Assembly (NCBI GenBank): GCA_015228785.1
Contig: JADGCU010000001.1
Location: 1,846 to 65,845, forward strand
Direction of reading: 5' to 3'
Length of the DNA: 64,000 bases
Source: Candidatus Omnitrophota bacterium
GTDB lineage: Bacteria; Omnitrophota; Gorgyraeia; Zapsychrales; Fredricksoniimonadaceae
The notes under the pieces are model-generated. The model was not told where the DNA came from. It made no database searches and saw only the letters and a list, made by a program, of their open reading frames with translations. The position numbers were made by a program, and so were the translations under genes. Shown piece after piece: positions 26,801-57,667 of this stretch (position 1 is its first letter; each line of letters opens with the position of its first letter).

Positions 26801-28618
26801 GGAAACGAGGAAATGCTTTTTCATGGGCTCAAAGTAAACGGTAAGAGATGATGGTTGCCCGGTTTCCAAAGGTCGAATGAATTCATTTAAATAAGGGGGT
26901 TGTGTGGTCCCGTAGACATCTGTAGCAAGTTTTCCAATAACCCGTTCACGAGGCAGTCCCAGGATTTCTTCATAACGTGGATTTACATCAGTGATCATGT
27001 AATTAACAGCAAGCCCATTTCTTCCGTAGATCACCCTGTGCATGGCCACGCCTTCTTGCATATTAGCAAAGAAAGAACGGAACTTTTTTTCACTGTCTTC
27101 CAGCGCGCGCGCCGTCATTCTGGTTTCGGTTACATCACGAAAGATTAAAATAACACCAATGATCCTTTGTTGATCATCCTTGATCGGGGCGCTCTTATTT
27201 TCGATAGGGAACTCTTTTCCGTCGCGGGATATAAGAAGGGTATGATTGGTCAGGGCAAGAATATTTCCATCGAGAAGTACTTTTTCAACGGGATCCATTA
27301 AGGGCATACGCGTTGATTCATTAAGCACGCAAAAGATCTCCTTGAGGGGGCGTCCTGTAGCCTCTTGGGCGCTCCACCCGGTAAGTTGTTCTGCGATTGT
27401 GTTCATGCGCGTGATGTGCCCGGAAACATTTGTTGTGATCAAGGCCTCCCCTATAGATTGCAGGGTGGTCATTAAATGATATTCTTTCGCTTCCGATTCA
27501 TGGGTCCGCTCCTCGGCAAAACGTTCCGCTACCTTCTGTTGAAGAAAGGCTCGTCTAATGTAGAGGGCAGACAAGAAGCTGAGAAGAATACCTAATGGGA
27601 GAAAGATCCAGTAGACAGGAAAAAAGAATGAAACGAAGAACGGGGTCGATGCTTCAACGGCAATTGAGAATTTTCGATCTAGAATAGGAATCTCGCGCAT
27701 ATAAACAGATGATTGCGGGTATAAGAAGTCAAAGGTTTTTGAAGATGGATGCTCGAGAGAACGTATCTGAAAAAGAAGGGATTCTGGAGAAGCGGAAACA
27801 TCATAGATTTTTATTGTTAACCCTGGAGCCAGAGGATATTTCAGGGCAGCTTTCGCAATCCCTGATGGTGAGAGGATCATCGCAGCATAACCTGCGATCG
27901 TCTCGGCAGGAAGGGGATCCAGTTCATGTTTTTCTGCCAAGACAGCTGCAATTAAGAGATAAGACCCTTCTTCATCTTTAGCAAAAGCCCATGGTGAAGG
28001 AAAGAAAAGTGTTTGGCCTGCTTTTTGGGACGCAGCGTCAAAGATCTTTTGCATTGATTGGCTGGCGCCAAGATCAAGGCCCAGAGAAGACGCGTTTTTC
28101 TCTTCCAAAGGCGCGATTAACGTGATCGGGTAATAAACGCTCCTTTGCTGTGAGACAGGCGATCGCCCATCAGGTGTCATATCATGAATAACGAAAGAAC
28201 CATGCTCTGTATCCCAGCGATCCTCAAAGGAGTCCTTTTCTAAGGAGCTGACTTTAGACACCCAGAAAGTTTCTAAAATGGTATCGGATTTGCCGAGAAA
28301 TGGTTGAATAAAATCATTAAACTCCTTTCGGTTGACAAATTCGGTCCCCCCGAAAAATCGTCGAAGGCTGTCAAAGTCAGCCGCGGCTCCTTTTAGTTGT
28401 TCGGAAATAATATCGCAGCGGAGATTTGCGCTTCTCTCAAAATAATGTTTTGCGAAGCTAAGGGCATTCTTTTGTGTTTCAAGAAAGAAAGATATGGTAA
28501 AAGACGTTCCAAAAAAGAAAATAATAGAAGGAAGAAAAAGTGAAGGAAGAAAAAAGCGTGAAAAGCCCTTATTTTCTTTGCCGCAAACAAGATTGGAAAT
28601 GTTTTTTAAGGCAGTCAT
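23900..28618 (-). CDS. membrane sensor: CHASE domain, six PAS domains, GGDEF diguanylate cyclase and EAL phosphodiesterase
   Basis: Two TM segments flank a CHASE-like periplasmic domain. Repeated PAS/PAC units follow, then the GGDEF motif (RLGGDEFIVFL) and EAL motifs (EALLRW, DDFGTGYSSL). Confidence 0.9.
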   Translation of the reverse strand: MTALKNISNLVCGKENKGFSRFFLPSLFLPSIIFFFGTSFTISFFLETQKNALSFAKHYFERSANLRCDIISEQLKGAAADFDSLRRFFGGTEFVNRKEFNDFIQPFLGKSDTILETFWVSKVSSLEKDSFEDRWDTEHGSFVIHDMTPDGRSPVSQQRSVYYPITLIAPLEEKNASSLGLDLGASQSMQKIFDAASQKAGQTLFFPSPWAFAKDEEGSYLLIAAVLAEKHELDPLPAETIAGYAAMILSPSGIAKAALKYPLAPGLTIKIYDVSASPESLLFQIRSLEHPSSKTFDFLYPQSSVYMREIPILDRKFSIAVEASTPFFVSFFFPVYWIFLPLGILLSFLSALYIRRAFLQQKVAERFAEERTHESEAKEYHLMTTLQSIGEALITTNVSGHITRMNTIAEQLTGWSAQEATGRPLKEIFCVLNESTRMPLMDPVEKVLLDGNILALTNHTLLISRDGKEFPIENKSAPIKDDQQRIIGVILIFRDVTETRMTARALEDSEKKFRSFFANMQEGVAMHRVIYGRNGLAVNYMITDVNPRYEEILGLPRERVIGKLATDVYGTTQPPYLNEFIRPLETGQPSSLTVYFEPMKKHFLVSIISFSPGTFATVFSDISEARKAEEALKTREAYLSAIFDNFPHIAWLKDPQGRFLAVNETFARSCNKPNASALNGLTDFDIWPKELAERYVADDLDVIATRRKKFVEEPVLDHGSIKWFETYKTPILDGNGNILGTTGFGRDITDRKASDNIIQESKKRLERASEAGRVALWERSLIDGKMTWSNFVNSMLGLTPEESLHTVSDWEKRIHADDLIRVKHLFEQHLKDNGPYDTVYRMKKSDGTYAWWHDIGLAQRNKEGIVEKMSGACVDISEQRLAQEELQKLVSVIHCSTEMIYLATLEGGIVFLNDAGSQMLGIEPEEMDQKTIFDVIPEHLTTKFKNEILPTLIRDSRWEGDSQCRHLKTGSLTDVHTLLFTLVDPETQQPLYLANISLDITQRKLAEQNLAQERELLRILIDNIPDSIYVKDIGGRKILANRADLDFMGVKNERDILGKTDADFYPAHLAEQYSKDDQAVLQSGRPVINREEVIDGTSGGLHWLLTTKLPFRGPDGLIKGLIGIGRDVTDRKFLENKLLTMAHYDMLTTLPNRTLFLEKANTGLAKARRNETMCAVLFIDLDLFKSVNDTLGHSVGDELLKDTAFKLTECIRESDTLARLGGDEFIVFLTDLEDGQFAQQIAERIREKFNNPRIISGNDLFITASIGIAVSPNDGDTFEELLKNADTAMYAAKDAGRNNFCFFNSIMNQKAVTKMQIERGLREALSKDELSLSYQPIVSVKDGKILGFEALLRWNRKEGGLVFPDEFIPVAEETGLIVPMGEWVLYRACQFNKKLSEAGYPGLSIAVNISVTQLRRTSILDTIKNALKDNGLPPESLEIEVTESILIESFEAAVDILKQIQALGVKIALDDFGTGYSSLSHLQHLPISRLKIDRLFIKNISQETEENDLTESIIALAHKLKLSVVAEGVEIDSQLNRLKSNHCDYFQGYLLSKPIEEAKVIAFLNNYHPQKT

Positions 28619-40395: not shown

Positions 40396-40471
40396 TCCCC
40401 TGTAGCTCAGTTGGTAGAGCATGTGGCTGTTAACCACAGTGTCCGAGGTTCGAGCCCTCGCGGGGGAGCCA
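40396..40471 (+). tRNA. tRNA-Asn (anticodon GTT)
   Basis: A 76-nt cloverleaf: acceptor TCCCCTG/CGGGGGA, D arm GCTC-AGTTGGTA-GAGC, anticodon stem TGTGG/CCACA with loop CTGTTAA, T arm CGAGG-TTCGAGC-CCTCG, and an encoded CCA. Confidence 0.95.
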
Positions 40472-40857: not shown

Positions 40858-41487
40858 ATGAACCATATCCGCCCTTTAGAACGAATTTTAGACTCCCAGG
40901 CCAAGGTCGCCATATTGAGGGTTTTATCCTTAGGGGTTGACCGGCGTATGGGAGGCAGCGAAATTGCGCGTGCTACGGGTTTTTCTATCCCCTCAACGCA
41001 TGATTCTTTGAAAGCATTACATGCTCTGGGTGTTGTCACAATGGAGCTCCTTGGAAATCAGCATGTTTACGTTTTGAACCACAAAGACCGGATTGTTCAG
41101 AAAATTCTTCTGCCAATGTTTAATGCAGAGGGCAACTGGAAGAAAGATGCCAAAGATAAGCTGATCCAGGGCATGAAAGATACGGGAATTCTTTCCTCCA
41201 TTGTTTCCGTCATCCTTTATGGCAGTATTCAGCAAGGGAATGCCAAGCAAGGCAGTGATTTGGATCTTGCGGTCATAGTGAAAGCTCCGGCAGATCTGGA
41301 AAAAGCCAGCGATGCGTTCCTAGGGCCCATTGCTGTTGATTTTGCGTCTTATTTTAGGATACGGCTTGATGCTTATATCAAGACTGCAGATGATTTTAGC
41401 AAGATGTTAAAAAGAAACAGCCCCCCCATTTCAACCTTGATGAAAGCTTATTCTGTTTTGTACGGTAAAGAACCACTGGAGATATGA
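40858..41487 (+). CDS. winged-helix + minimal nucleotidyltransferase (MNT) domain protein, antitoxin-like
   Basis: N-terminal wHTH (ILRVLSLG...GSEIARATGFSIPSTHDSLKALHALGVV), then the NTase motif LYGSIQQGNAKQGSDLDLAVIV (GS-x10-DxD). Confidence 0.8.
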   Translation: MNHIRPLERILDSQAKVAILRVLSLGVDRRMGGSEIARATGFSIPSTHDSLKALHALGVVTMELLGNQHVYVLNHKDRIVQKILLPMFNAEGNWKKDAKDKLIQGMKDTGILSSIVSVILYGSIQQGNAKQGSDLDLAVIVKAPADLEKASDAFLGPIAVDFASYFRIRLDAYIKTADDFSKMLKRNSPPISTLMKAYSVLYGKEPLEI

Positions 41488-41488
41488 G

Positions 41489-41893
41489 ATGACACCCAAA
41501 GAAACAAAGGTTCGCGAGGAAAGCCGTTTAGCGGCCAGTGATTATTTAAAAAAGGCGACCGATAATTATGAGCAGATGATCGTTGCCTATAATGCCGAGA
41601 ATTGGAATGCGGCTTCCACACTAGCCGTGCAATGCGCGATTTCGTCAGCCGATGCCATCTGTGTTCACCATCGAGGCGTGCGTTCGATCTCTCAGGATCA
41701 TCTTGATGTCTGTGAGTTGGTTTCCTTAATAGCGTTAGAAGGAGCAGCGGAAAAGGCCAAACAGCTTCGTAAGGTCATTGCCCGCAAAAATATGGTTCAG
41801 TACGAGAGCCGCAGCGCCAGACGCACGGATGCGGATGAAATGGTTAAAGTGACCACTCGTTTTTACCAGTGGGTATTGGAAAATCTTCGCTAA
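41489..41893 (+). CDS. HEPN domain protein, toxin-like partner of the MNT gene
   Basis: 134-aa all-helical ORF that starts 1 nt after the MNT stop. It has a candidate R-x5-H motif (RSISQDH); the MNT-then-HEPN gene order is classic. Confidence 0.7.
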   Translation: MTPKETKVREESRLAASDYLKKATDNYEQMIVAYNAENWNAASTLAVQCAISSADAICVHHRGVRSISQDHLDVCELVSLIALEGAAEKAKQLRKVIARKNMVQYESRSARRTDADEMVKVTTRFYQWVLENLR

Positions 41894-41956: not shown

Positions 41957-42087
41957 ATTCACTATTCGAAGGGCGTTTTAGTAACTGGATGGTCTGGATA
42001 GTTTTGGTGATATTTGAGACTGATTAGGGATTGTTTTTTAAAGATAAAAAGGAAATAGAAACGAAGAATGTTTTTATTCTTTAGAGG

Positions 42088-43887
42088 TTATGGGCTCCCA
42101 AACTCGGCTCCTGCGGATCGTGATGGCCTGCCCGCTTCTTTCAGGCCCACATGATTGGCTCCAAAATTATATGTAACGCTTAAATAGGCTCCCCTTTTTT
42201 GATAAGAGCGTTGATCGTGATCCGGCCATGTTGTGAAATAATCTGTTGAGGCTGTCAGAAGCCAGCTGTCCGTAGCGCGATAATTAATACTCAGCCAACC
42301 ATAACACAAGGGATGATTTGATATTTTATGCTGCGTATCACTTTTTTTCTGGAATTCATAACCGCCCGCGGCTTTGGCCTCAACAAACAATTTATTCGTC
42401 ACATCTATGCCCGAATAAAGCCCCAACGTATCTGAACGAAGCGTGCGGGGATTAAAATACCCATGGCGTAGCTCCGGCTCTCCCCAATCCGAATAGTAAT
42501 CATTAAAGAAGATCTTTATAAAAGGCTTCTGCATCAGACGATATTCTGCATTACTGAAGACCTGATCTTGATCATTGTGATCGCTATAATATCCCCGTTT
42601 ATATTTTGTTCCGAAAAGCCAGAAACGGTTCGGTCTGAAATCGACAGACAGCGAGCCGCTGTTGGTAATGATTTTATGAAAAAGCGCATCATTGTCTTCA
42701 AATGTTTCCCGTTCATAGGCAGCATCAAAACGCCACAAGTCATCTGGCTTATATGTAAACCATGTATTCATCGTAAAAGGATCAAAATTGATTTTATTAA
42801 AATGGGTCTGATGCACAAATACGTTTAGCTCATGATCCAGCCCAAAATGCTGACTTATTCCTACCCCCTCGCGGTTAGCAGATATCGTCGAATATTGAGC
42901 ATTCTTCTTTCGTAGGATCTGATGTTCGTAAATACCTTCCACTGATGTAGAATCATTTAGATGAGTCCCCACACGGGCACCATTTGTAAAAACAGTCTGG
43001 GGAGTGCTATCATTCGTAAACCGTCCATACGCCTTGATAAAGGAGCCCGGAGCACCCTTTATTTTCGTGTACATTTTTTGCGCTTCTTGACGATCTGGTT
43101 CAAACGCCAAAAGTTCTTCAAATCTTTTAGCCGCAGCCGAATCTTCTCCTTGCCAATGCAAAGCAAAGGCAAGTCCATCAATCGCATCAGGATTCTTGGG
43201 ATATTTCTTCAGGATGTCTTCGTACCGGCTGATTCCTCGACGGAGATACCCCTGCCACACCAAAACTTTAGCCTGACCAGTAAGGGATGTAAGATCGTCT
43301 GCATTTTGATCTAAGACCTTCTGATACAGAGCGTATGACTCTTCAAGCCTATCAAGTAAACTCAGCGCATTGGCCTTGGCTAGAATTACATCTTTGCTAT
43401 TAGGCCAACGTTTCAGCGCCGCATCATATGTTTTTAAAGCATCAACATTCTGATCATTGGAAAGAAGCGTCTGTGCTAATCTAAGAAATACTTTCAAATC
43501 ACTTTCTGGCGATAGCAGGGCTTCTTTATACACAGCGATCGCCTTAGGAATTTGCCCGCTCCACAAGTATTGATCCCCTAGTTCACGTAAAATCTCTTCA
43601 GATCTTTCAGGATATGTAGCGCGTAATTCCTCAAAGAGTTTTATCGCTTGCGCATGGTCATCCGCATATGTATAGACCCGTGCCCATTCGATAAGCAATC
43701 CAGGATCTTGGCGTAACTGGCTCTCAATGCGAACATAAATCTGAAGGGCTTGGGCGTATGCTTTCTGTTCAACAAAACTTCGCGCTGTACGCAACTGGTC
43801 GTCAAAAGTATTCTGTGCAAATACGCTTGTCATCAAACAGGCGCTTGCTAACATTGAAAGAAAACTGTTTCTTATTCTGACCTTCAT
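42088..43887 (-). CDS. TPR-repeat / beta-barrel outer-membrane protein, PgaA/BcsC-like polysaccharide export porin
   Basis: Signal peptide (MKVRIRNSFLSMLASACLMTSVFAQ), about 270 aa of TPR-like helices, then alternating beta-strand sequence ending in LSVTYNF. Its ATG overlaps the GT2 stop (ATGA). Confidence 0.6.
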   Translation of the reverse strand: MKVRIRNSFLSMLASACLMTSVFAQNTFDDQLRTARSFVEQKAYAQALQIYVRIESQLRQDPGLLIEWARVYTYADDHAQAIKLFEELRATYPERSEEILRELGDQYLWSGQIPKAIAVYKEALLSPESDLKVFLRLAQTLLSNDQNVDALKTYDAALKRWPNSKDVILAKANALSLLDRLEESYALYQKVLDQNADDLTSLTGQAKVLVWQGYLRRGISRYEDILKKYPKNPDAIDGLAFALHWQGEDSAAAKRFEELLAFEPDRQEAQKMYTKIKGAPGSFIKAYGRFTNDSTPQTVFTNGARVGTHLNDSTSVEGIYEHQILRKKNAQYSTISANREGVGISQHFGLDHELNVFVHQTHFNKINFDPFTMNTWFTYKPDDLWRFDAAYERETFEDNDALFHKIITNSGSLSVDFRPNRFWLFGTKYKRGYYSDHNDQDQVFSNAEYRLMQKPFIKIFFNDYYSDWGEPELRHGYFNPRTLRSDTLGLYSGIDVTNKLFVEAKAAGGYEFQKKSDTQHKISNHPLCYGWLSINYRATDSWLLTASTDYFTTWPDHDQRSYQKRGAYLSVTYNFGANHVGLKEAGRPSRSAGAEFGSP

Positions 43888-45224
43888 TTGTCCCTTTGAG
43901 AAATAACCCACTCCCTTACCCCCACCAGTTCGTCCCGGATTGCAACAACCTGAATCGTATTTTTAAACATCGTATAAGGAAAGGCTAAGAACGCATAACA
44001 AAAATACTGAATGATGGATGCTTTGGGAAGCGTCGCGTTCTTATACGCTATCAAGGCTTCAAATGGACCACTAAAGAAGGTAAAGAATAACGCGAACCAG
44101 ATAAACCCGTTCATTGGTAAAGCTACTTGTCCGCGTGTCAACCAAAAAGCAAAGACAATTGGAAAAAGAAAATGTCCAAGAATGTCATAAATAACTCTCC
44201 ATGCAAGAAGGGTCGTCCACATAAATTTCTGAAGAACATTTAATTGCGACGATATAAAGACAGGCCATTGGTGTTCCATTGAGCATTGAAACCATCCCTG
44301 TGCTCATCGCTTACGCTGAAACCATAGCCCTCCTACCGTTATTGGCGCTAGTTCAGTCGAAACGATCGATCGGTCATGAACAAGATGGTTCCCTTCGAGG
44401 GTTGCGCGCAGCGTCAAATCAATGTCCTCAGTCAGTCTGTCTTTTCGAAATTTCATCTTTTTTATCACCGAAGCGCGCCAGTATCCGTTGGCTCCTCCAA
44501 AAAGAGCTGAATCAAAAAGCCATGATTTAGAGTGATGGCTGATGCCATAAATAGCCTCGAATTCAACTTCCACCAACGCTGATACCAAACTTGCCTTACC
44601 GTTACGTATTTTACACCTTCCCTGAACAGCGCTATAACCTCCATCAAGCCAACGCCAGGCCGAAGCTAGACAATCTGGCATGACCAAATGATCGGCATCC
44701 AAAAGTACGATCATTTCTCCGGAAGCCATATCCAGGGCATAATTTAAATTCTCACTCTTACTTTTAGACCCGTACGCATTGGCTAAAATAAGTTCAGGCC
44801 ATTTATAAGCGAGTTCACGCAACCGCAACTCGATCGGTTCCATATGCGGCGTGTTATACGCCAAGAATACCTCGATCCCCATTGCAGGTCGCTCAACGCG
44901 TTGCAGAATATTCAAGATAGTATCTTCAACAACATCCAGTTCATTTGGCAAATACGCACTCACCATGAATGTGGTTTTAGGTATAGGCTTGTTTTGGGTC
45001 GCGGGACGTTCTTTGAATTTCTTTCTACTGATCCCTGTTAAGGAGTACAAATAAGAAAGAGCTGCCTGAAAGATGAAAAGCTACAGAACAAGATAATACG
45101 AAAAATTGAGAAAAGCCGGATGATAGAGGCCAACGCAGTAGAAAACAACTGTTGGAATGAGAAGAAAAGAGAGAAAAATTTCCAGAAGTTTGAGCCATTC
45201 AATGGACCGTTTTTTATCAGACAA
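43884..45224 (-). pseudogene. membrane GT2 processive glycosyltransferase (PgaC/BcsA/NodC-like) with two in-frame stops (TAG 45081-45083, TGA 44304-44306)
   Basis: One 447-codon frame contains two N-terminal TM helices, FMVSAYLPNE, LLDADH, TEDIDLT, QRKR[TGA]AQGWFQ and a C-terminal TM bundle. The track splits it into 44304-45050 and 43884-44279. Confidence 0.75.
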
Positions 45225-45227
45225 TGG

Positions 45228-45422
45228 TTATGCCTCCAAGAGTGTCAATATCTCTTGATCTAAGATCGCGTGGCGCTTTTCATCTTTGATAACGCCTAAA
45301 AATGAAGCGCGCAGCTCTTTATCCGTCGTTAACTCTGCCAATTCTGTATATATAGCCAAAGCATTCTGATCTGCTGCCAAAAGCTGACGTACCCGTGCTT
45401 CAAGGATTTTACGGTCCATCAT
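45228..45422 (-). CDS. small helical protein, ferritin-like/rubrerythrin-like half-domain (hypothetical)
   Basis: 64-aa ORF with a two-helix pattern, YTELAEL ... IKDEKRHAIL (E ... ExxH). It overlaps the upstream ORF by ATGA. Confidence 0.5.
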   Translation of the reverse strand: MMDRKILEARVRQLLAADQNALAIYTELAELTTDKELRASFLGVIKDEKRHAILDQEILTLLEA

Positions 45423-45637
45423 AAAGAAACTCTCTTTTTGGCTTCCGCTATAATATCTTTGTGGCGTAACGTGTCTGCTTTAATACTTAAAAGAATGGTT
45501 TGGATGCGCTTACGCACATCAACTGGAATGTCCTCGGGCAATGCCTTTGGATGGCAAAGATCGATCAGCGTTCCCGCCATTTCTTCTTCCATTTGATACG
45601 CACGTTCCAATCGGTCTAAAAAGACTTCATTATTCAT
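45419..45637 (-). CDS. small helical protein (hypothetical), paired with 45228-45422
   Basis: Two predicted helices (LERAYQMEEEMAGTLIDL ... IKADTLRHKDIIAEA). I prefer ATG 45637 to the track's TTG at 45685. Confidence 0.45.
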   Translation of the reverse strand: MNNEVFLDRLERAYQMEEEMAGTLIDLCHPKALPEDIPVDVRKRIQTILLSIKADTLRHKDIIAEAKKRVSL

Positions 45638-45911
45638 AAACTTAATATATCTTGATAGGGAATAATTAAAAGGAAATAATGTCAAATATAAGAAAATAAC
45701 ACTGCCCTTTGTGTAAGAATCTTCTCTCTATGTACTGTGCTGCTAGAGGAAGTTGTGAATTGGCGTTCAGTAATTAGAACCAGGTATAACAGTGCTTTTT
45801 AGTAAGGTTTCTTGCGGCTGATTGTTATTTCTTGTGATAAAATATTTACAAATAAATATCTTTAAATAGTTTTATTAAGAAATTATTTGTTTCGCGCTTG
45901 TGTAATATGAA

Positions 45912-46643
45912 ATGTTTCTATTTCCCGAGAGCCGCATGAGAATTAAACTTATATTCTTAATCCTTGCAACAATCGGTTTATCATTCTTGTCGCTTAGTAG
46001 CAGTGTAACGGTATTAATGCCAGCGATACAGCATAATACCGCTCTTAAAACTCCACCCGAAAAACCGGATCCAAGTAAATTCTATCTCTTCTATCTTCAC
46101 GGAAAGATAGTTGAAGGGTCTGGTGGCAACCCCAAAAACCCTGATTACGGGACGTATGAATATTTTAATATTGTGAATAGTTTCTCTAAAGAAGGATTTG
46201 TTACAATCAGTGAGATTCGAGGCAAGAATACAGATGTTGATCAGTATTCAACAAAAACAACGAAATGGATAGAAAGCTTATTAAATGCGGGCGTCCCCCC
46301 TTCTCATATTACGGTTGTAGGGGCATCTAAAGGCGGCATGATAGTCACAAAAGTGTCTAATCAGCTTAAAAATAAAGAAATCAAATATGTGTTCCTGGCA
46401 GGCCTTTTTAGCAACCTTCTCAAGAGAAAGCCAATGAAGCTTTGGGGTGAAATTTTGTCAATTTATGACAAATCAGATACATCTCAAGTTTCAGCGGAAT
46501 CGCTTCTTAAGGCTTCTAAAAGAGTAACAAAAATCAAGAATGTCATAACACAAACGGGTAAGGGGCACGGATTGATCTTTAAACCATACCCTGTCTGGAT
46601 GAAAGAAGTTGTTGCCTGGAGCGGAATAAAGAACAGTAAATAG
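45912..46643 (+). CDS. secreted alpha/beta-hydrolase-fold protein (hypothetical)
   Basis: Signal/TM segment, FYLFYLHG, and the nucleophile-elbow-like GASKGG. Start is uncertain (45912 or 45936). Confidence 0.55.
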   Translation: MFLFPESRMRIKLIFLILATIGLSFLSLSSSVTVLMPAIQHNTALKTPPEKPDPSKFYLFYLHGKIVEGSGGNPKNPDYGTYEYFNIVNSFSKEGFVTISEIRGKNTDVDQYSTKTTKWIESLLNAGVPPSHITVVGASKGGMIVTKVSNQLKNKEIKYVFLAGLFSNLLKRKPMKLWGEILSIYDKSDTSQVSAESLLKASKRVTKIKNVITQTGKGHGLIFKPYPVWMKEVVAWSGIKNSK

Positions 46644-48355: not shown

Positions 48356-49762
48356 TTAGGCAAAGATCAAGGCGAGAATGTTCATTATTAACTGAGGCCA
48401 GAATCCGAACAAGAGAACAGCTGAGAGACAAATGGCGAGAACTATCATCCCGCTTACAGGGATACGGATGGGCTGAGAATCCGGGGAATCTTCAAAATAC
48501 ATAACTTTGATCACTTTTAAATAATAAAAGAAGGCGACAACGCTATTAACAACAACGGCAGTAGCCAGGAAATATTGCTTTACGTCAATGACAGCCACAA
48601 GGACAAAGAATTTTGCGAGAAATCCAGCCAGCGGCGGAAGGCCTGCCAGGGATAACAGGAAGATGGAAAAAACAAGGGCCCATCCTGGCGCCCGACGTCC
48701 CATGCCTTTGAATGATTCCAGAGGGGCGCGTTCAGATGATAAGAAGGATGCGCACGCAAAGGCCCCCATGTTCATGAACGTGTAGATCACGATATAAAAA
48801 AATGCGGCCTTCAAGCCTAACACTCCTGCGGCAAGGCCGGCTAATATGTATCCTGCCTGGGCCACAGAAGAAAACGCCAGAAGACGTTTTACGCTCTCTT
48901 GATGGAATGCGGAGAAATTGCCTATGGTCATGGTCGCGATCGCCAGAAACACAGCTATCCCCTCCCATCCTGATGTCAGGAAAGCGGGGAATCCGAAGAA
49001 TACTCTCGCCAAAAGAGCAAATCCGATGGCTTTGGGGCCAATCGAAAAGAATGCAGCAACAGGCCACGGTGCCCCCTCGTACACATCAGCGACCCACATA
49101 TGAAAAGGAACAAGGGATGCTTTAAAGGCGAATCCTGCAAAAACAAGTAACCCGGCAAGAACTAGTGTTGGCTCATGAATCCCCCCTGCGGCCAACTTGA
49201 GTCCGATGGCGGGAAGGCTCAACGTTCCTAAAAGGCCATATACAAGCGATATCCCATAAAGCATAATTCCTGTTGATAGAGCGCCGAAAAGGAAATATTT
49301 GAGCCCTGCTTCTGTGGAATAAAGATCTTTTTTGAATGAACACGCCAGAACATAAGATACGATCGACAGGGTTTCGATCGCAAGATAGATCATGAGAAGA
49401 TTCGTCGCGCTAACGGTGAGCATCATGGAGATCGCAGCTACTAACAGAAAGAAATAATATTCTCCCGCATCATCATGATCAGACCAGCTGTAACCAATTG
49501 ACATGAGAACAGCTAATCCTGTAGCCACAAGAACAAGAGCCCTCATAACAAAAGAAAAGACATCATTGGTTAACATGCCAGAGAAAACCATGGAGGATGA
49601 ATCCAGTGTCATGGGCAGAGAGAAAAAGCCAATGACAATGGCCATGAGTGCGATCAAGCCCAAAGGTTTTCTGCGCAAGCCAAAAACACCGCATACAAGA
49701 AGCATGAGCCCTGCGGCTGTGAGCACTAACTCTGGCTTGATAAATTGAAGTGAATTCATCAT
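48356..49762 (-). CDS. nuoN: NADH-quinone oxidoreductase subunit N
   Basis: 14-TM antiporter-like subunit, last gene of the nuo run. It overlaps the nuoM stop by 4 nt. Confidence 0.9.
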   Translation of the reverse strand: MMNSLQFIKPELVLTAAGLMLLVCGVFGLRRKPLGLIALMAIVIGFFSLPMTLDSSSMVFSGMLTNDVFSFVMRALVLVATGLAVLMSIGYSWSDHDDAGEYYFFLLVAAISMMLTVSATNLLMIYLAIETLSIVSYVLACSFKKDLYSTEAGLKYFLFGALSTGIMLYGISLVYGLLGTLSLPAIGLKLAAGGIHEPTLVLAGLLVFAGFAFKASLVPFHMWVADVYEGAPWPVAAFFSIGPKAIGFALLARVFFGFPAFLTSGWEGIAVFLAIATMTIGNFSAFHQESVKRLLAFSSVAQAGYILAGLAAGVLGLKAAFFYIVIYTFMNMGAFACASFLSSERAPLESFKGMGRRAPGWALVFSIFLLSLAGLPPLAGFLAKFFVLVAVIDVKQYFLATAVVVNSVVAFFYYLKVIKVMYFEDSPDSQPIRIPVSGMIVLAICLSAVLLFGFWPQLIMNILALIFA

Positions 49763-51216
49763 AAGGTTTTCACCAAAACATCAACGGTATGTTTTTGGAA
49801 GTCCAAGATCGCATCAGGATAAAACCCGACAATAAGGACAAGAATTAATAAAGGCATAATCACTGCCACTTCCCCCATGCTCATGTCAGACCAGACGACA
49901 CCTTCCTTAGGCTTTCCCCACAGCACTTTTTTAACCATGACCAAAAAGAGGACAACGACGGCGATAAGGCCGATCGCAGAAATAATGGCCAGTTTTGGAA
50001 ATGTTATAAAAATACCAGCTAAGGATAGGAATTCTCCCACAAATCCGCTGAGGCCTGGTAATCCCAGAGATGCCAAGGCCATAAAAGTCAGGAAAAATGC
50101 ATACCTGGGCATTGTCGAGGCCAATCCCCCAAAAGCCGAAAATTCACGCGTATGAGACCGCTCATAAACCACCCCAACTAGAAGGAACATCGCGCCAGTA
50201 ATGATACCGTGATTGAACATCTCAAGGATGCTGCCATTAAATCCCGTGCTGTTCATCGCCGCAAGGCCCAGCAAGACAAATCCCATATGACTAACGGATG
50301 AATAGGCGATCAGCTTTTTGAAGTCCGTCTGCGCAAAAGCAGCGCATGCTCCATAGATCAAATTAACAGCCCCCAGAACTCCTAGAGACCAGGCGAACAT
50401 AGCCACAGCTTCAGGAAAGAATGGCACACAAACGCGAAAGAGTCCGTATGTCCCCATTTTAAGAAGAACGCCTGCCAGGATCACGCTCACAGGGGTCGGC
50501 GCTTCCACGTGCGCATCGGGCAACCAGGTGTGAAAAGGAAACACAGGAACCTTGATGGCAAATGCAAAAAAGAACATGAGAAAGAGTATGGCCTGAAGCG
50601 TCCTACTCAAGAGTGGCGATGAATACGCCAGTTCCAACATATTAAAAGTATGTGGAGTTGAAAGAAAATAGATCCCGATGATTGCCAGGAGCATCACGAC
50701 CGAACCTGCCAATGTATAAAAGAAAAACTTCCAGGCCGCATATTCCCGGCGAGGTCCACCCCATATTCCAATTAAAAAAAACATGGGGATCAGGACTGTT
50801 TCCCAAAAGATATAAAAAACCACAAGATCCAGGGCAAGGAATGTTCCCAGCATGCCGGTCATCAGGATCTGATAGACAATGAAATATTCCTTAATTCTTG
50901 ATTTGATCGTGTTGGATGCCAGGCAGGCCAGAAATCCCAGCAAAGCGGTCAAAAAGACTAAGGCCAGGCTGATCCCGTCCACCCCGACTGTGTAGTGAAT
51001 GCCGGCCTGAGGGATCCAGGGATGTGTTTCCGTAAACTGCATGCTGCCACTCGTACGGTCAAAAAGAAGGCATAGCACACCAACGACCATGAGAACAGCA
51101 GCATTAAAAGCAATCGCGGTCATGCGAATGATCTTATCGCAATTGCCCGGGATCAAGGCCACTACCAAAGCGCCAAGAAGCGGAAGAAAAATAATAGTTG
51201 TTAAAAGATACGGCAT
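49759..51216 (-). CDS. nuoM: NADH-quinone oxidoreductase subunit M
   Basis: Antiporter-like subunit with FPFHTWLPDAHVEAPT. Confidence 0.9.
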   Translation of the reverse strand: MPYLLTTIIFLPLLGALVVALIPGNCDKIIRMTAIAFNAAVLMVVGVLCLLFDRTSGSMQFTETHPWIPQAGIHYTVGVDGISLALVFLTALLGFLACLASNTIKSRIKEYFIVYQILMTGMLGTFLALDLVVFYIFWETVLIPMFFLIGIWGGPRREYAAWKFFFYTLAGSVVMLLAIIGIYFLSTPHTFNMLELAYSSPLLSRTLQAILFLMFFFAFAIKVPVFPFHTWLPDAHVEAPTPVSVILAGVLLKMGTYGLFRVCVPFFPEAVAMFAWSLGVLGAVNLIYGACAAFAQTDFKKLIAYSSVSHMGFVLLGLAAMNSTGFNGSILEMFNHGIITGAMFLLVGVVYERSHTREFSAFGGLASTMPRYAFFLTFMALASLGLPGLSGFVGEFLSLAGIFITFPKLAIISAIGLIAVVVLFLVMVKKVLWGKPKEGVVWSDMSMGEVAVIMPLLILVLIVGFYPDAILDFQKHTVDVLVKTL

Positions 51217-53039
51217 AATTTTCCTAAAATAAACAATAGGAGCGCCAGTACTCCACCTGCCTGCATTAAGAGATAATTTTCAACAAGACCTGTTTGAAGG
51301 CGTTTTACTGCCTGAGCACAAAAAGCCACAATAGTAGAAACGCCATTGACAGCGCCATCAATGTGCAACTGATCAAATCTTTTCATGGCCTCACAGATTT
51401 TGTGAAAAGTCTGAACAAAAACAACATCATAAAGCTCATCAACGTAATATTTGTTTTCAACTAGGCGAATAAACCAGTTTCTACAGGGACAGTCTGACCC
51501 GGGAAGTTTGAATCCTTTGACAATAAGGAGATACGCTAGCCCTATTCCCGAAAGGCTTAATGCGGTCGAAAAGACGATCATTCCGTAATTCAAATGAACG
51601 GCCTCTTCCCCTCCCGTAAGGAAGTTTTGAAAAGCGCCGTGACACCAGGGCGACCCGATGAACCCTAGGCCAGCGGCAAAGACTGCAAGGATAACAAGAG
51701 GGAACGTCATCACGGCTGGAGATTCATGCGCATGGGTTTCTGTCCTAGGCTCTCCCAAGAATGTCAGGAAGATGACCCTGGCCATATAAAACGCTGTGAG
51801 GAAACTCGTAAGAACAGCAGCTCCGAACAGCAAAGGATTTCCGCTTTGCCAGAGGGTGATGAATATTTCATCCTTTGACCAGAAGCCGGACAAGGGCATG
51901 ATCCCTGCCAATGCCAGGGCGCCAATGATAAAAGTAACCCCCGTGATCTTCATCTTATGGATCAACCCGCCCATCTGACGGATGTCCTGTGTATGAACCG
52001 CATGGATCACTGATCCAGCACCCAAGAAGAGCAATGCCTTAAAGAACGCATGTGTCATCAAGTGGAATGTTCCAGCAGTAAAACCACCAGCGCCAAGCGC
52101 GAGCATCATCAGCCCCAGTTGACTGACCGTTGAGTACGCGAGAACTTTCTTGATATCATTCGCTGTGCAGGCAATAGAAGCCGCCATTATCGCTGAGATC
52201 GCACCGATAATCGCTACCGTTTGAAGCGCGAGCGGATGCATCGCAAAAAGTACATAAGACCTGGCCACAAGATAAACACCGGCAGCGACCATGGTCGCCG
52301 CATGAATCAAGGCAGAAACTGATGTAGGGCCTTCCATGGCATCAGGAAGCCATACGTGTAAAGGAAACTGAGCAGATTTACCCATGGCACCCAAAAAGAT
52401 CAACAGCGCTGCGACGGCCATCAATATTTCAGATCCCGGAAGACTTCCCATGTCAGCAAAACGAAGTGAGTGCCCCGTCGCCAGAAGGATCAAAATACCG
52501 ATCAATAAACCTGTGTCTCCTATTCGTGTTGTCACGAAAGCCTTCACGCCTGCGGCGGCTGCGGCCGGTTTTTCATACCAGAAGGCGACCAAGAGGCATG
52601 AGCACAATCCCACCCCCTCCCAAAAGATATAAAGCATCAGTAGATTATCAGCTAAAACGAGCCCCAGCATGGACGACATAAAAAGAGAAATATAAGCAAA
52701 GTATCTTGAAAATCGGATATCCCCGCCCATATATCCGATCGAATAGATCTGGATCAGCGTGCCTACGATCGTAACGACCAAAAGCATCATGACGGTCAAA
52801 CTGTCGACAATAATTCCAAGAGTAATCGGATGATCATGGATCGTAATCCAGGTTGCAAGTTCATAGGAGCCGCCCCCAGGCTTAAGCCCCATGAAGACCA
52901 GGATGGCCAGGACTGTTGAAATGAGTGACGCTCCGACTGACACATAAGCTGATCCTCTGCCAAGCCTCCGGCCAAAGGCTATATTGAGCCAAAACGCAAG
53001 GAACGGGAAAACTGGGATCAAGTGAGCAATATTTACCAT
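51201..53039 (-). CDS. nuoL: NADH-quinone oxidoreductase subunit L
   Basis: 612 aa, with QFPLHVWLPDAMEGPTSVSALIHAATMV and a C-terminal lateral-helix extension. Confidence 0.9.
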   Translation of the reverse strand: MVNIAHLIPVFPFLAFWLNIAFGRRLGRGSAYVSVGASLISTVLAILVFMGLKPGGGSYELATWITIHDHPITLGIIVDSLTVMMLLVVTIVGTLIQIYSIGYMGGDIRFSRYFAYISLFMSSMLGLVLADNLLMLYIFWEGVGLCSCLLVAFWYEKPAAAAAGVKAFVTTRIGDTGLLIGILILLATGHSLRFADMGSLPGSEILMAVAALLIFLGAMGKSAQFPLHVWLPDAMEGPTSVSALIHAATMVAAGVYLVARSYVLFAMHPLALQTVAIIGAISAIMAASIACTANDIKKVLAYSTVSQLGLMMLALGAGGFTAGTFHLMTHAFFKALLFLGAGSVIHAVHTQDIRQMGGLIHKMKITGVTFIIGALALAGIMPLSGFWSKDEIFITLWQSGNPLLFGAAVLTSFLTAFYMARVIFLTFLGEPRTETHAHESPAVMTFPLVILAVFAAGLGFIGSPWCHGAFQNFLTGGEEAVHLNYGMIVFSTALSLSGIGLAYLLIVKGFKLPGSDCPCRNWFIRLVENKYYVDELYDVVFVQTFHKICEAMKRFDQLHIDGAVNGVSTIVAFCAQAVKRLQTGLVENYLLMQAGGVLALLLFILGKLCRIF

Positions 53040-53341
53040 TTCAACGTATTAAAATCGTCCGTATTAACAGATTTTCTTAATCGATACACCGCAATCACAA
53101 GGATAAGCCCCACAACACTTGCGGCGGCGGCCACGCCGATAACAAAAAGGGCAAACACCTGTCCCAAACCATCAGGCGACCCCAAATATTTATTAAAAGC
53201 GATCAAATTAATATTTGCGGCGTTCAGGATTAGCTCAACCGAAATCAGAAACCGTATGGCATTGCGTTGTGTGAGGACGCCGTACACGCCGACACAAAAA
53301 AGAAAAAGACTTAACGCCACAATATGTCCAAGGGGGATCAT
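53033..53341 (-). CDS. nuoK: NADH-quinone oxidoreductase subunit K
   Basis: 102 aa with 3 TM helices, and ISVELILNAANINL. Confidence 0.9.
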   Translation of the reverse strand: MIPLGHIVALSLFLFCVGVYGVLTQRNAIRFLISVELILNAANINLIAFNKYLGSPDGLGQVFALFVIGVAAAASVVGLILVIAVYRLRKSVNTDDFNTLKW

Positions 53342-53826
53342 TTCTTCACCTTTCCGATCACAACAGCCCCGACCAGCGCTGCGAGAAGCAAAAGCGAGAT
53401 GAATTCAAAAGGAACAACATAGCTCGTGACCAATGATGTGCCAATGGTCTTTAGATCTGTCACGGGGCTACCTGCCTGAAGGCGCATCCAAGGGCCATCC
53501 ATAACGACCTTGCCCAGGACAACGAAAAGCGTTGCCGCGATCAAAAGTCCTGGCCAGAATTGACGATTGACCTGACTGATCGACCGATCCCCTATTTTAG
53601 CGGTCAGCATGATCGCAAAGACAAAAAGGGCCATAATGCCGCCGACATAAACAAGGATCTGAATAACACCCAGAAAACCCGCATCCAGATAGAAGTAAAG
53701 AAAAGCAATGCTGATGAGTGTTAGAGCAAGCCAGATCGCCCCATGAAAAATATCTCGAACGGTTACGCTCAAAAGAGCCCCCGCGCCAACCAAGAAAGCA
53801 ATGATGTAAAAGACGGCCTCGTTCAT
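53338..53826 (-). CDS. nuoJ: NADH-quinone oxidoreductase subunit J
   Basis: 162-aa membrane protein with LGVIQILVYVGGIMALFVFAIM. Confidence 0.85.
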   Translation of the reverse strand: MNEAVFYIIAFLVGAGALLSVTVRDIFHGAIWLALTLISIAFLYFYLDAGFLGVIQILVYVGGIMALFVFAIMLTAKIGDRSISQVNRQFWPGLLIAATLFVVLGKVVMDGPWMRLQAGSPVTDLKTIGTSLVTSYVVPFEFISLLLLAALVGAVVIGKVKK

Positions 53827-54281
53827 TTCTTCAATCCCTTTACCTTGGGCGGAGTCAAGTGCTGATACTTGTCCGCTTTAAGAAGGTCAATCTTTGTGAG
53901 GTCTCCGTGCTTGTAATACGCGACCTCATAACACTTGTTCAAATACATAGCTGCTGTGGGGCAAACTTCCTGACATAAACCGCAAAAACAGCACAGCTCG
54001 CCATTATAAGAGAAAGCGCCAAGGAATCTCTTTTTGGTCTCAGGATTAGTCGTCGCTGTAAGGTCAAGAGCTGCTGTGGGACAAATTTTAACACATTGTG
54101 AACAGGCGATACATTTCTCTGGATATAGATCAACCAATCCACGGAATTTCTCAGTCATGACTGGTTTTTCAAAAGGATATTGAATTGTCACCGGTTTCTT
54201 GAGCATATTCTTTCCGGTCACGGCAAGCCCTTTCAGGATGCTGATAAAGCCTGCCACAATATCATTGATCTTGCTTAACAT
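53823..54281 (-). CDS. nuoI: NADH-quinone oxidoreductase subunit I
   Basis: Two 4Fe-4S ferredoxin motifs, CIACSQCVKICP and CCFCGLCQEVCP. Confidence 0.9.
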   Translation of the reverse strand: MLSKINDIVAGFISILKGLAVTGKNMLKKPVTIQYPFEKPVMTEKFRGLVDLYPEKCIACSQCVKICPTAALDLTATTNPETKKRFLGAFSYNGELCCFCGLCQEVCPTAAMYLNKCYEVAYYKHGDLTKIDLLKADKYQHLTPPKVKGLKK

Positions 54282-54283
54282 AA

Positions 54284-55255
54284 TTAACCTTTAAGGACCA
54301 GCAACAACCCGGTTACTAGAATATTGACAAGCGCGATGGGCGTTAAAATTTTCCAGGCAAAGGCCATCATCTGATCCATCCTCACACGAGGCAAGGTCCA
54401 TCTGACCCACATTAAAAAGCTGATGATCCCATACACCTTAAGCAGGAACCATACCGCTGATGGACGAAAGAATCCGATCCATCCTCCCAGGAAAAGGGTT
54501 GCGGCGACCGCAGAAATGATGAAAAGATTTGCGTATTCTGCTAAAAAGAACATCGCGAATTTCATTCCTGAATATTCTGTATGATAACCGGAAACAAGCT
54601 CTGATTCAGCCTCAGGGATATCAAAAGGAACTCGATTTACTTCCGCAGTTGCGGAAATAAGATAAACAAGAAAAGCAACCATCACATTAGGCTTGAGGAG
54701 AAAAAGCCCCGCCTCCTGAGCATGAACAATTCCCTGCATAGACAAGGTCCCTGCTTCCATAATAATGACGAGAACTGACAAAAGAAGCGGCACCTCATAA
54801 CTGATGATCTGCGCTGCGGCGCGCATGCCTCCAAGAAGCGAATACTTGTTATTCGATCCCCAGCCGGCCATGAAAACGCCCAGAACGCAGACAGAGGTAA
54901 TAGAGCAGATGAAAAGAACACCTACATTTAAATCTCGCACGATCCAGACATTGCTGAACGGAACACACAGGAATGCGGCAATCGTGGGCACCGCCACAAA
55001 GAACGGAGCCAGCCACCAGACAAAACGATCCGCGCTGCTCGGGACAATGTTCTCTTTTAAAAGAAGTTTCACCGTATCGGCAATAAGTTGTAAAGATCCA
55101 TGTGGCCCAACGACCATGGGGCCCAGACGATTTTGGACCTTGGCCGAGACCTTTCGTTCAAGCCAGATCAGGAACATGGCATTGACCGCAAAAAAGGCCA
55201 GGATATAAACCCCTTTTACCACAAGGAACACAAGGTCGATCAAGGGATAATTCAT
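54284..55255 (-). CDS. nuoH: NADH-quinone oxidoreductase subunit H
   Basis: ERKVSAKVQNRLGP and EVNRVPFDIPEAESELVSGYHTEYSG. Confidence 0.9.
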   Translation of the reverse strand: MNYPLIDLVFLVVKGVYILAFFAVNAMFLIWLERKVSAKVQNRLGPMVVGPHGSLQLIADTVKLLLKENIVPSSADRFVWWLAPFFVAVPTIAAFLCVPFSNVWIVRDLNVGVLFICSITSVCVLGVFMAGWGSNNKYSLLGGMRAAAQIISYEVPLLLSVLVIIMEAGTLSMQGIVHAQEAGLFLLKPNVMVAFLVYLISATAEVNRVPFDIPEAESELVSGYHTEYSGMKFAMFFLAEYANLFIISAVAATLFLGGWIGFFRPSAVWFLLKVYGIISFLMWVRWTLPRVRMDQMMAFAWKILTPIALVNILVTGLLLVLKG

Positions 55256-56346
55256 CGGTCGATCTCCCCCATCACGATATCCAAACTTCCCAAAACACAG
55301 ACCAAATCCGAAATGTTCAACCCCTTGACTAAATGAGAGATCACGGAAAGATTGGAAAATGAAGGTGAGCGCACCTTAAGCCTGTAAGGAAAAGGATTCC
55401 CGTCGCCTACGATATAAAATCCCAACTCTCCCCTGGGATTTTCGGTCCGCATATAGGTCTCTCCTGTAGGACGAAAGACCTTGTTGACCTTGGCCACAGG
55501 ATCTCCTTCGGGAAGCGCCCCAAGCGCCTGCTCAATGATCTTCAGGCTCTCTTCCATCTCGACCATTCGCACATAGTAGCGGTCAAAGGAATCGCCATTC
55601 TGGCCTGTCGGGATATTAAAATCAAATTTATCATAAGCCAGATACGGCTCGTCTTTGCGCAAGTCCCACTTGACACCTGAGGCCCGCAGGCTGGTTCCGG
55701 TCACGCCATAATTGATCGCCAATTCTTTGGGAAGGATCCCGATCTTCTTGGATCGCACACAAAAAATAATATTTCCCGTCAGAAGATCCTGATATTCGGC
55801 CAACATCCGCCGTTCATAACTGATAAAATCCTTGATCAACAGATCCACACCAACAGGAATATCTCCCGAAACCCCTCCCACGCGCAAATAATTGTAGGTC
55901 AAGCGTTGACCGCAAAGCTGGTCAAATATCTGTAAGATCTTTTCACGATCACGCAGGGCGTAAAATAAAGGGGTCGCGTACGCTCCCAAGTCCTGCGCAA
56001 AGGTGCTGATCGCAAGCAAATGGCTGGCGATGCGATTCAATTCAGCAACGATCACTCTGATATATTGTGCTCGGGGTGGGGCTGTAATCCCCAGAAGTTT
56101 TTCTGCAGCCAAACAAAAACCGAGATTGTTATTCATCGAAGCCATGTAATCAAGCCGGTCCGTAAAAGCAATGAATTGGGTCAAAGAACGGTTTTCCGCA
56201 ATCTTTTCGATAGAGCGGTGAAGATATCCGATATGCGGCTGGCAATCAAGGACCACTTCTCCATTCAGCTTCAGCTGTAAATACAATACCCCATGCGTCG
56301 AGGGGTGTTGTGGGCCCATATTGATGATCAATTCCTGGAGTTCCAT
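55252..56346 (-). CDS. nuoD: NADH-quinone oxidoreductase subunit D
   Basis: NMGPQHPSTHGVL, and the C-terminal LGSLDIVMGEIDR. Confidence 0.95.
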   Translation of the reverse strand: MELQELIINMGPQHPSTHGVLYLQLKLNGEVVLDCQPHIGYLHRSIEKIAENRSLTQFIAFTDRLDYMASMNNNLGFCLAAEKLLGITAPPRAQYIRVIVAELNRIASHLLAISTFAQDLGAYATPLFYALRDREKILQIFDQLCGQRLTYNYLRVGGVSGDIPVGVDLLIKDFISYERRMLAEYQDLLTGNIIFCVRSKKIGILPKELAINYGVTGTSLRASGVKWDLRKDEPYLAYDKFDFNIPTGQNGDSFDRYYVRMVEMEESLKIIEQALGALPEGDPVAKVNKVFRPTGETYMRTENPRGELGFYIVGDGNPFPYRLKVRSPSFSNLSVISHLVKGLNISDLVCVLGSLDIVMGEIDR

Positions 56347-56350
56347 AGCC

Positions 56351-56803
56351 TCACTTCACTGGCCTGGGAATGAACCCAGCCATTTTAAAGTCCTTACGCA
56401 AGGGATGATCTGTCCAGCTGTCTGGATTCATGATACGACGTAAATCATGATGATTTTGAAAGCGTACGCCAAAAAGATCGTAAACTTCACGCTCGAGCCA
56501 GTCCGCTGCGCCCCATAAAGGCGTCAAGGAATCAATGACAAGATCAGCATTGGGAAGGATCACTTTTACGGTCAACATGATGCGCTGTTTAAAAGAATAA
56601 AAGTGATAAACAACTTCGACAGTTTCTTTACGGTCAACAGCTGTCAGACAATGGAGACTTGAGAATTCTGACGGACCATCCTTAAGAAAACGGGCCACAT
56701 CGATCAGGTTCTCTTTGTTGATAGTCACCCATCCCGGCGTCTGTTCAGCCACAGCACCTGGAAAACGGTCCTTAATGCTTTGAATAATAGCTGCGGTATC
56801 CAA
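56351..56803 (-). CDS. nuoC: NADH-quinone oxidoreductase subunit C
   Basis: LWGAADWLEREVYDLFGVRF. I chose TTG 56803, just after the nuoB stop; the track ORF extends upstream into nuoB. Confidence 0.85.
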   Translation of the reverse strand: MDTAAIIQSIKDRFPGAVAEQTPGWVTINKENLIDVARFLKDGPSEFSSLHCLTAVDRKETVEVVYHFYSFKQRIMLTVKVILPNADLVIDSLTPLWGAADWLEREVYDLFGVRFQNHHDLRRIMNPDSWTDHPLRKDFKMAGFIPRPVK

Positions 56804-56804
56804 A

Positions 56805-57320
56805 TTAAGCCGTCTTTCCCTGTTTGCTTCTAATCTTTTCCTGGAGTTTAATGATCCCATGAAGAAGATTCTCGGGACGCGGCGGGCACCCGGCCACAAA
56901 GACATCCACAGGAATCCCCGTCTCTTCAACCCCTTTTACTACGGAATAACTGTCGTGATAGAAAATTCCACCGCTGATGGCGCAATTGCCCATGGCAATA
57001 ACATATTTGGGTTCAGGCATCTGGTCATAAAGTCTTTTGATCGTTTCCTTCATCTTGATACAAATCGTACCCGAGACGATCATGACATCGCACTGGCGTG
57101 GACTGGCTCGAAAAACACCGGAACCAAACCGGTCAATATCAAAATGTGATGCGCCGGTTGCCATCATCTCGATCGCGCAGCAGGCGAGCCCAAAGGTTAA
57201 CGGCCACAAGGAGGCCCCTTTAGCCCAATTAAAAAGGTCATCTGTTCTGGCCAGGACAAACCCACCGCCAGGGACTTTCTCAATATATTCTGAACCCAGG
57301 ATCTTCTCGTTTACAGCCAT
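56805..57320 (-). CDS. nuoB: NADH-quinone oxidoreductase subunit B
   Basis: [18 protein letters not shown] and GCPPRPE (N2 cluster ligands). Start is at ATG 57320 (MAVNEKILG). Confidence 0.9.
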
Positions 57321-57667
57321 TCCAGGGCTCCTTTCTTCCAGGCATAGACAAGGCCGAGCGCTAAAACGCCGATAAAAATGACCATTTCCACATAGGCCGT
57401 CATGCCCAACTGCCGAAAGACAACGGCCCATGGCACGGTAAACAGTATTTCCACGTCAAAGATGACGAAGATAAGAGTGACAAGATAGTAACGAATATTG
57501 AATTGTACGCGGGAATCGCCGTGGATCACTTCCCCGCATTCGTAAGGAGAATTCTTCGCAACAGAAGGCGCGCGAGGCCTTAGAAACCAGGATGCCGCAA
57601 AAGCAGCGGCTACGAACCCAGTCCCTAAAATAAAGAAGAAAATAACGTATAGATGATCAGGAAGCAT
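57311..57667 (-). CDS. nuoA: NADH-quinone oxidoreductase subunit A
   Basis: 118 aa with 3 TM helices, and YECGE...FIIFDVE-like motifs ([17 protein letters not shown]). Confidence 0.9.

Follow-up and report, generated by a model that had tools for sequence, protein, structure and literature searches.

The synthase frame and its two in-frame stops

The window analysed here, a stretch of 64,000 nucleotides (64 kb) from an Omnitrophota metagenome-assembled genome (MAG), carries on its minus strand a cassette of four genes whose third member, a family 2 glycosyltransferase (GT2) gene of the polysaccharide synthase type (43884–45224), is the subject of this study. Translation of the minus strand from a TTG start (45224–45222) to a terminal TGA (43884–43886) yields a single frame of 447 codons, i.e., 446 residues plus the terminator, and the only internal stops are a TAG at codon 48 (45081–45083) and a TGA at codon 307 (44304–44306). 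No frameshift was found between 43884 and 45224, so that the description given in the original prediction, one continuous frame with two nonsense codons as its only lesions, holds. A GGAGG Shine-Dalgarno sequence (45233–45237, minus strand) precedes the TTG by 8 nt, within the end of the preceding small open reading frame (ORF), and inspection of the sequence before the internal restart candidates TTG 45050, ATG 44966 and ATG 44279 revealed nothing comparable.

Profile searches were run on the frame with both stops replaced by tryptophan and gave Pfam matches above cut-off to PF13632 (65 bits), PF13641 (59 bits) and PF00535 (35 bits). More than 2000 homologues were found in the databases, the best of which align over the full length (100%) at 76% identity with an E-value of about 1e-241, and this similarity, together with the length of the frame, shows that the frame is not a product of chance. 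The best 120 homologues mostly measure about 444–465 amino acids, cover 77–100% of the query at identities of up to 76% and, where the source is named, are mostly labelled as Candidatus Omnitrophota/Omnitrophica MAGs, with a few labelled as Planctomycetota, Phycisphaerae and Kiritimatiellales. The frame contains FMVSAYLPNE, LLDADH, TEDIDLT and QRKR followed directly by the TGA; in the family profile, DADH, TED and QRKRW align with DADH, TED and QRGRW of BcsA (4hg6/5ej1), and the DxD, TED and QxxRW motifs are invariant throughout the family.

Hydropathy analysis marked segments 8–39, 37–65, 339–363 and 366–393, and an AlphaFold (AF2) model of a 76%-identical orthologue (P0001; pLDDT 88.8, pTM 0.87) places two helices at the N-terminus (10–34 and 36–65), followed by a GT-A domain, an interface helix (297–324) bearing the QxxRW motif and four C-terminal helices (330–350, 353–364, 373–395 and 404–433). 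Foldseek searches with this model returned BcsA, PcManGT, hyaluronan synthases (HAS) and the chitin synthase Chs1 as top matches, with BcsA scoring best (E 2.5e-15, TM about 0.62–0.65), and the top sequence-profile match in the PDB was PcManGT (E 2.8e-14). The PgaC/BcsA/NodC-type layout that had been read from the letters, including its motifs, two N-terminal transmembrane helices and C-terminal bundle, is consequently confirmed by Pfam, motif alignment, hydropathy and fold. GT-A domain, catalytic motifs, flanking transmembrane helices and fold of the membrane-bound processive GT2 class are all present, and what the window copy lacks is an uninterrupted coding sequence with the tryptophan of QxxRW, which makes it a disrupted member of the family.

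On the basis of sequence and model, the gene is thus assigned to the processive membrane synthases of the BcsA/HAS/PgaC/NodC/chitin synthase type and, within these, to an uncharacterised subfamily. The nearest NCBIfam family is PgaC/IcaA (TIGR03937, E 1.2e-25); at 90.4 bits the match stays far below the equivalog cut-off of 422.3, and neither PgaB nor PgaD is found in the cassette, so that an assignment as PgaC orthologue was rejected. The same applies to a cellulose synthase of the BcsA/CelA type, as the respective models score only 37 bits (TIGR03030, cut-off 699) and 23 bits (NF008558, cut-off 992) and no Pfam match to a PilZ domain exists in a protein that ends at residue 446.

In the deposited annotation, exact-sequence look-up recovered the gene as two proteins, both encoded on a single contig (110,426 bp) of a MAG deposited at NCBI as "Candidatus Omnitrophica bacterium". 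The first is a "glycosyltransferase family 2 protein" of 220 amino acids (MBF0121812.1; 44304–44966, minus strand), devoid of both N-terminal helices, the QxxRW tryptophan and all C-terminal helices; the second, the hypothetical protein HQL21_00205 of 131 amino acids (MBF0121811.1; 43884–44279, minus strand), corresponds to the bundle of helices at the C-terminus of the synthase. Each is the only member of its sequence cluster, and the public record, which includes both stops, does not flag the gene as a pseudogene. The text of a study on MAGs of magnetotactic bacteria (PMC7602337; Illumina, metaSPAdes), considered as a possible origin of the deposit, does not mention the locus tag HQL21_.

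Orthologues and the age of the lesion

The comparison with orthologues that the original prediction had proposed was based on 28 full-length orthologous DNA loci, none of which has a stop at codon 48 or codon 307. Moreover, among 35 related loci (11 from species-representative genomes and 24 from metagenomes), no orthologue is split at these points into parts with their own starts and ribosome-binding sites. Codon 307 is TGG in 28/28 orthologues and aligns with the tryptophan of BcsA QRGRW, confirming that the TGA stands exactly on the invariant QxxRW residue and implying that it arose as a TGG-to-TGA change on the catalytic tryptophan; the changed base is 44304, with T on the plus strand where C is expected. 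The TAG at codon 48 lies midway along the second of the two N-terminal transmembrane helices (36–65), as predicted, in a column that is variable among the orthologues (15 Ser codons, eight TGG, four Thr codons and one Leu codon, TTG). The proposal that both stops are one G-to-A transition away from TGG therefore stands for the ancestry of codon 307, whereas at codon 48, as judged from this column, the ancestor is ambiguous between TGG, TCG and TTG, each one step away; the base most likely altered is 45082, read as T on the plus strand.

The gene is rich in tryptophan, with 14 TGG codons in addition to the ancestral one at position 307, and 32 of the 313 possible coding-strand G-to-A changes (~10%) create a stop, which makes nonsense hits comparatively likely here; among all substitutions the stop-creating fraction amounts to about 4–5%. 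Both stops could be written as GG-to-AG changes on the coding strand, a context that is automatic for TGG to TAG and depends on the next base for TGG to TGA, and inspection of the sequence around the two sites revealed no common methylation-like motif. A local cluster of hypermutation or deamination was rejected: with only ~10% of G-to-A changes making stops, such an event should also have struck conserved residues, and none is struck.

Two tests addressed the age of the inactivation. Conservation reaches 97% or more in 89 columns of an alignment of 122 family members, and the window gene departs from the consensus at only one of them, i.e., the tryptophan at codon 307, which equals the family median of one (maximum five). 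When GT2 identity was regressed on the identity of the neighbouring TPR/porin protein across 18 cassettes, the mean residual of the window was −1.2, within a spread from −4.9 to +4.5. The absence of excess change at conserved sites and the normal divergence relative to the porin give no sign of relaxed constraint and indicate that the inactivation, if real, is recent; an older, decaying pseudogene was rejected for the window copy on the same grounds.

Taken together, we consider it fairly probable that the GT2 gene is a real, very recently inactivated pseudogene with two nonsense mutations and not a new coding device. The stops are found where orthologues have sense codons, the fragments lack ribosome-binding sites and stop codon usage elsewhere in the window is standard. 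Of the three explanations between which the original prediction did not choose, namely a very recent pseudogene, heterogeneity in assembly or strain, and readthrough that throttles polysaccharide synthesis, the first is favoured by the 28 orthologues, the conserved sites and the porin divergence; the throttle lacks support, as the stops are not conserved, stand in series and come with no recoding signal. Three points weigh against our interpretation: the stops are attested by a single MAG consensus sequence, the remaining cassette genes are intact, and two nonsense hits with neither a frameshift nor any other damage are somewhat unusual for neutral decay. The chance that a second stop appears while all highly conserved sites are still unchanged is about 1 in 5, as roughly estimated from the 4–5% stop fraction and the conserved fraction, and the pattern is compatible with a first knock-out that was followed shortly afterwards by a neutral second hit.

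In relatives, the GT2 would by analogy draw on a nucleotide-sugar donor to build a sugar polymer and pass it through a transmembrane channel of its own, and the TPR/barrel protein would convey it across the periplasm and the outer membrane. In the genome studied here, ribosomes starting at TTG 45224 would be expected to halt at the TAG after 47 residues, and any product restarted downstream would end at the TGA, devoid of the N-terminal helices, the acceptor-binding tryptophan of QxxRW and the C-terminal channel helices, so that no functional synthase should be produced. Translational coupling into the porin gene via an ATGA overlap would probably be lost too, i.e., the lesion would have a polar effect. 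We infer that the cells themselves, and not just the assembled sequence, carry the stops, and that polysaccharide production has been lost in this organism, which should probably be scored as lacking this exopolysaccharide. The annotation, in turn, should be corrected such that MBF0121812.1 and MBF0121811.1 are treated as one disrupted synthase gene.

Competing explanations

An artefact of assembly or consensus, including a chimeric consensus of co-existing strains, appears unlikely. In this case the gene would be uninterrupted in the cells or have a single stop there, and the deposited contig would combine minority or separate alleles. The source is a MAG in which each allele is seen on one contig only, and the lack of any other decay is what would be expected of an intact gene with two wrong bases. 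A same-strain copy was not among the available data: exact look-ups of the porin, acnA and the fragments and searches of genome and metagenome collections recovered nothing nearer than 76% GT2 identity, apart from the NCBI MAG proteins themselves, and a megablast search of window positions 42000–46000 against a plasmid collection gave no match. A generally error-prone assembly is, however, not supported by the remainder of the window, as the other 53 ORFs show no splits or frameshifts. A scan for long ORF pairs in the same frame revealed no other gene-like case split by a single stop, and overlapping neighbouring ORFs proved to be distinct full-length families (ThiF/TatD, NAD kinase/HAD, NuoC/NuoB and radical SAM/ALAD). 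The lesion is thus specific to this gene and no sign of poor assembly. Furthermore, two random errors falling into one gene of 1.3 kb and both creating stops would be very improbable given the small stop-making fraction of substitutions, and a mixture of strains would still presuppose that genuine nonsense alleles had reached a high frequency in the population.

Two of the related loci carry lesions of their own. On the metagenome contig Ga0172375_10002987, the GT2 of locus L020 (6001–7341) is interrupted in frame by a TAG in place of the invariant Gln201, a position occupied by CAG or CAA in the other 28 aligned sequences (the window gene and 27 orthologues). This copy also carries the exchanges A293S and R343H at highly conserved residues, has diverged faster than the porin beside it and shows the most negative residual of GT2 versus porin divergence (−4.9), while its neighbouring genes look intact; judged by its sequence, it looks like a second, older and independent knock-out in another lineage. 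In locus L023 (4629–6322, Ga0268276_1003657), it is the TPR/porin gene that is affected: compared with L024 (91.5% identity), a single nucleotide is missing and the frame is shifted, which points either to a pseudogene or to an error of assembly. Counting the window gene and L020, disrupted GT2 copies amount to 2/29, which is suggestive, yet indistinguishable from an ordinary background of pseudogenes. Such occasional independent knock-outs suggest that the cassette is dispensable under some conditions.

The two stops in the window, the L020 TAG and the frameshifted porin of L023 together gave rise to a more far-reaching idea, namely that the Omnitrophota cassette is repeatedly, and possibly adaptively, switched off by point mutations, with the TGA on tryptophan being partly reversible via readthrough by Trp-tRNATrp. 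We regard this as a long shot; if true, it would amount to a crude on/off or dimmer switch at the population level for a surface polymer in ultra-small, possibly host-attached bacteria.

Improbable, in our judgement, is that leaky stops throttle expression, with Trp-tRNATrp reading UGA at codon 307 and a near-cognate tRNA reading UAG at codon 48, so that a little full-length synthase is made. Readthrough at codon 307 would restore the native tryptophan, the variable column at codon 48 is tolerant, and the contexts of the stops, TGA-G and TAG-C, are rare among the true terminators of the window (2/17 and 0/8, respectively). In E. coli, competition between Trp-tRNATrp and RF2 determines how often UGA is read through, and readthrough of UAG is reported to be of low frequency (PMC10570021); two serial stops would multiply two small probabilities. 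The absence of both stops from all 28 orthologues gives no sign of selection for them, and a distance of one base from a sense codon is true of any stop that arose by point mutation. As to recoding signals, no Rfam match, including the selenocysteine insertion sequence (SECIS), was obtained at E ≤ 1 in 43500–45900, and RNA folding downstream of the two stops is unremarkable (z-scores of −2.0 and +0.4). Nonsense-decoding suppressor tRNAs occur in ~0.3% of standard-code bacterial genomes (PMC13092985); the search for one, confined to the 64-kb window, found none, the only tRNA there being a tRNA-Asn (40396–40471).

Programmed readthrough or recoding was rejected on the same findings. Selenocysteine, pyrrolysine or other recoded residues were likewise discarded, considering the missing Rfam match, the weak folds and a position that is tryptophan and not cysteine in the family, and a literature search on stop-codon peculiarities in Omnitrophota yielded nothing relevant.

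A naturally split synthase, whose fragments are translated separately and assemble as subunits, would agree with the two deposited proteins but is very improbable, as no orthologue is split there, the internal starts are without a Shine-Dalgarno sequence while the true start has GGAGG, and the stops would cut the protein within a transmembrane helix and within the catalytic QxxRW motif, whose tryptophan is deleted. An altered genetic code with TGA as tryptophan and/or TAG as sense codon, for which the TGA exactly on an invariant tryptophan might speak, is effectively refuted, since the other 53 ORFs end in TAA (28), TGA (17) or TAG (8) to give full-length domains and no window gene has another in-frame TGA or TAG, in agreement with the prediction that such a code does not apply. 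Neither a challenge to the genetic code nor a new mechanism follows from this gene.

The cassette, its surroundings and known systems

The order of the cassette (72-amino-acid ORF, 64-amino-acid ORF, GT2, TPR protein of ~590 amino acids) was found to be fixed in the 35 related loci by tblastn searches with the window neighbours, while the genes flanking it vary between them. It is thus strongly conserved across Omnitrophota-type genomes and as yet uncharacterised. By analogy, the cassette can be likened to Pga and Bcs and would constitute a synthase-dependent polysaccharide secretion system.

The TPR protein (42088–43887, minus strand) is intact and, according to Pfam, NCBIfam and synteny, a presumed outer-membrane export component with a possible PgaA-like C-terminal barrel; its gene lies beside the GT2 gene in every locus that reaches that far. 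The designation as porin in the original prediction is only partly supported: TPR families match strongly, but similarity to the PgaA barrel is weak and remains below cut-off (PF21197 PgaA_barrel, 19.5 bits versus 27; TIGR03939, 46.9 versus 366.7), and several orthologues carry a precomputed PF21197 match. The ATG of this gene overlaps the terminal TGA of the GT2 gene as ATGA, and the junction recurs in the loci L004, L008, L014, L017 and L020, where the porin match begins with the base directly preceding the GT2 stop, in line with the operon structure having been preserved as noted originally. The window protein matches MBF0121810.1 at 100%. This deposited version begins at an internal methionine (581 amino acids); alignment with orthologues and the conservation of the overlap favour the ATG further upstream, at 43887, as the likely start (599 amino acids). 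A protein of 1038 amino acids on a Logan contig (P0160) contains both GT2 and TPR Pfam domains and looks like a GT2-porin fusion call, possibly via a shift at the ATGA junction.

Upstream of the synthase gene, the cassette begins with the 72-amino-acid ORF (45419–45637, minus strand), which has an invariant MEE (E17, E18), D55 and H59 and overlaps the following gene by ATGA. The 64-amino-acid ORF (MBF0121813.1; 45228–45422, minus strand), directly upstream of the GT2 gene, is conserved in 34/35 loci with invariant D18, Y25, E48 and H51. The latter shows a weak match to the EncB half-ferritin (E 2.5e-4, below cut-off) and is possibly half-ferritin-like, and the two ORFs together may form a ferritin-like four-helix pair, which would be an unusual and uncharacterised partner of a polysaccharide synthase.

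Further features of the window include adjacent genes for a nucleotidyltransferase (Polbeta/NTP_transf_2, with a helix-turn-helix) and a HEPN protein (40858–41893, plus strand), a typical NT-HEPN toxin-antitoxin-like pair, which lies between the tRNA-Asn gene and the cassette and is not conserved in the related loci. At a distance of ~15 kb from the cassette, a protein of 1572 amino acids (23900–28618, minus strand) with CHASE, multiple PAS, GGDEF and EAL domains represents a sensor of cyclic di-GMP turnover. A run of co-oriented ORFs (48356–57431, minus strand) looks like an apparently intact NADH dehydrogenase (nuo-like) operon; the Pfam check covered the two ORFs at 56351–57431, which match Oxidored_q6 (complex I 20-kDa) and Complex1_30kDa.

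Among the known systems, BcsA (4hg6, 4p00, 5ej1) is likewise a membrane-bound processive GT2, whose DADH, TED and QxxRW motifs align column for column with the window protein and which has a TPR and barrel outer-membrane partner, BcsC. BcsA is, however, considerably longer (~730–870 versus 446 amino acids) and shares only ~18% identity, and the window system features neither a PilZ domain nor a BcsB partner. PgaC/IcaA and PgaA resemble the window in size, in the layout of N- and C-terminal helices and in the downstream TPR protein with a possible PgaA-like barrel, as in pgaA, whereas the PgaB deacetylase and PgaD of the PgaABCD system are missing and their place in the cassette is taken by two small, possibly ferritin-like ORFs ahead of the synthase. 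Hyaluronan synthases of Chlorella virus and Xenopus (7sp6-9, 8smm) and PcManGT (6yv7) share the single polypeptide with its own channel helices (TM about 0.6), yet differ in genomic context and taxa and are only 12–19% identical.

The inactivation itself has well-documented counterparts in E. coli, where premature stops have led to the loss of exopolysaccharide operons independently in different lineages, including the bcs loss-of-function alleles of ST95 (PMC5944007; PMC10881479). Cellulose operons are silenced in this way e.g., by a TTG-to-TAG change in bcsQ of strain K-12 and by a stop in bcsE of ATCC8739 (PMC5944007). As probably in the window, a single-base nonsense mutation silences an otherwise intact synthase-dependent operon, likely with polar effects, and the stop in L020 would parallel the independent occurrence. 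In contrast to the window, whose stops are attested by the consensus of a single MAG, phenotype and repair were shown experimentally for bcs in E. coli, and the window further differs from these cases in that its two stops lie inside the catalytic subunit itself.

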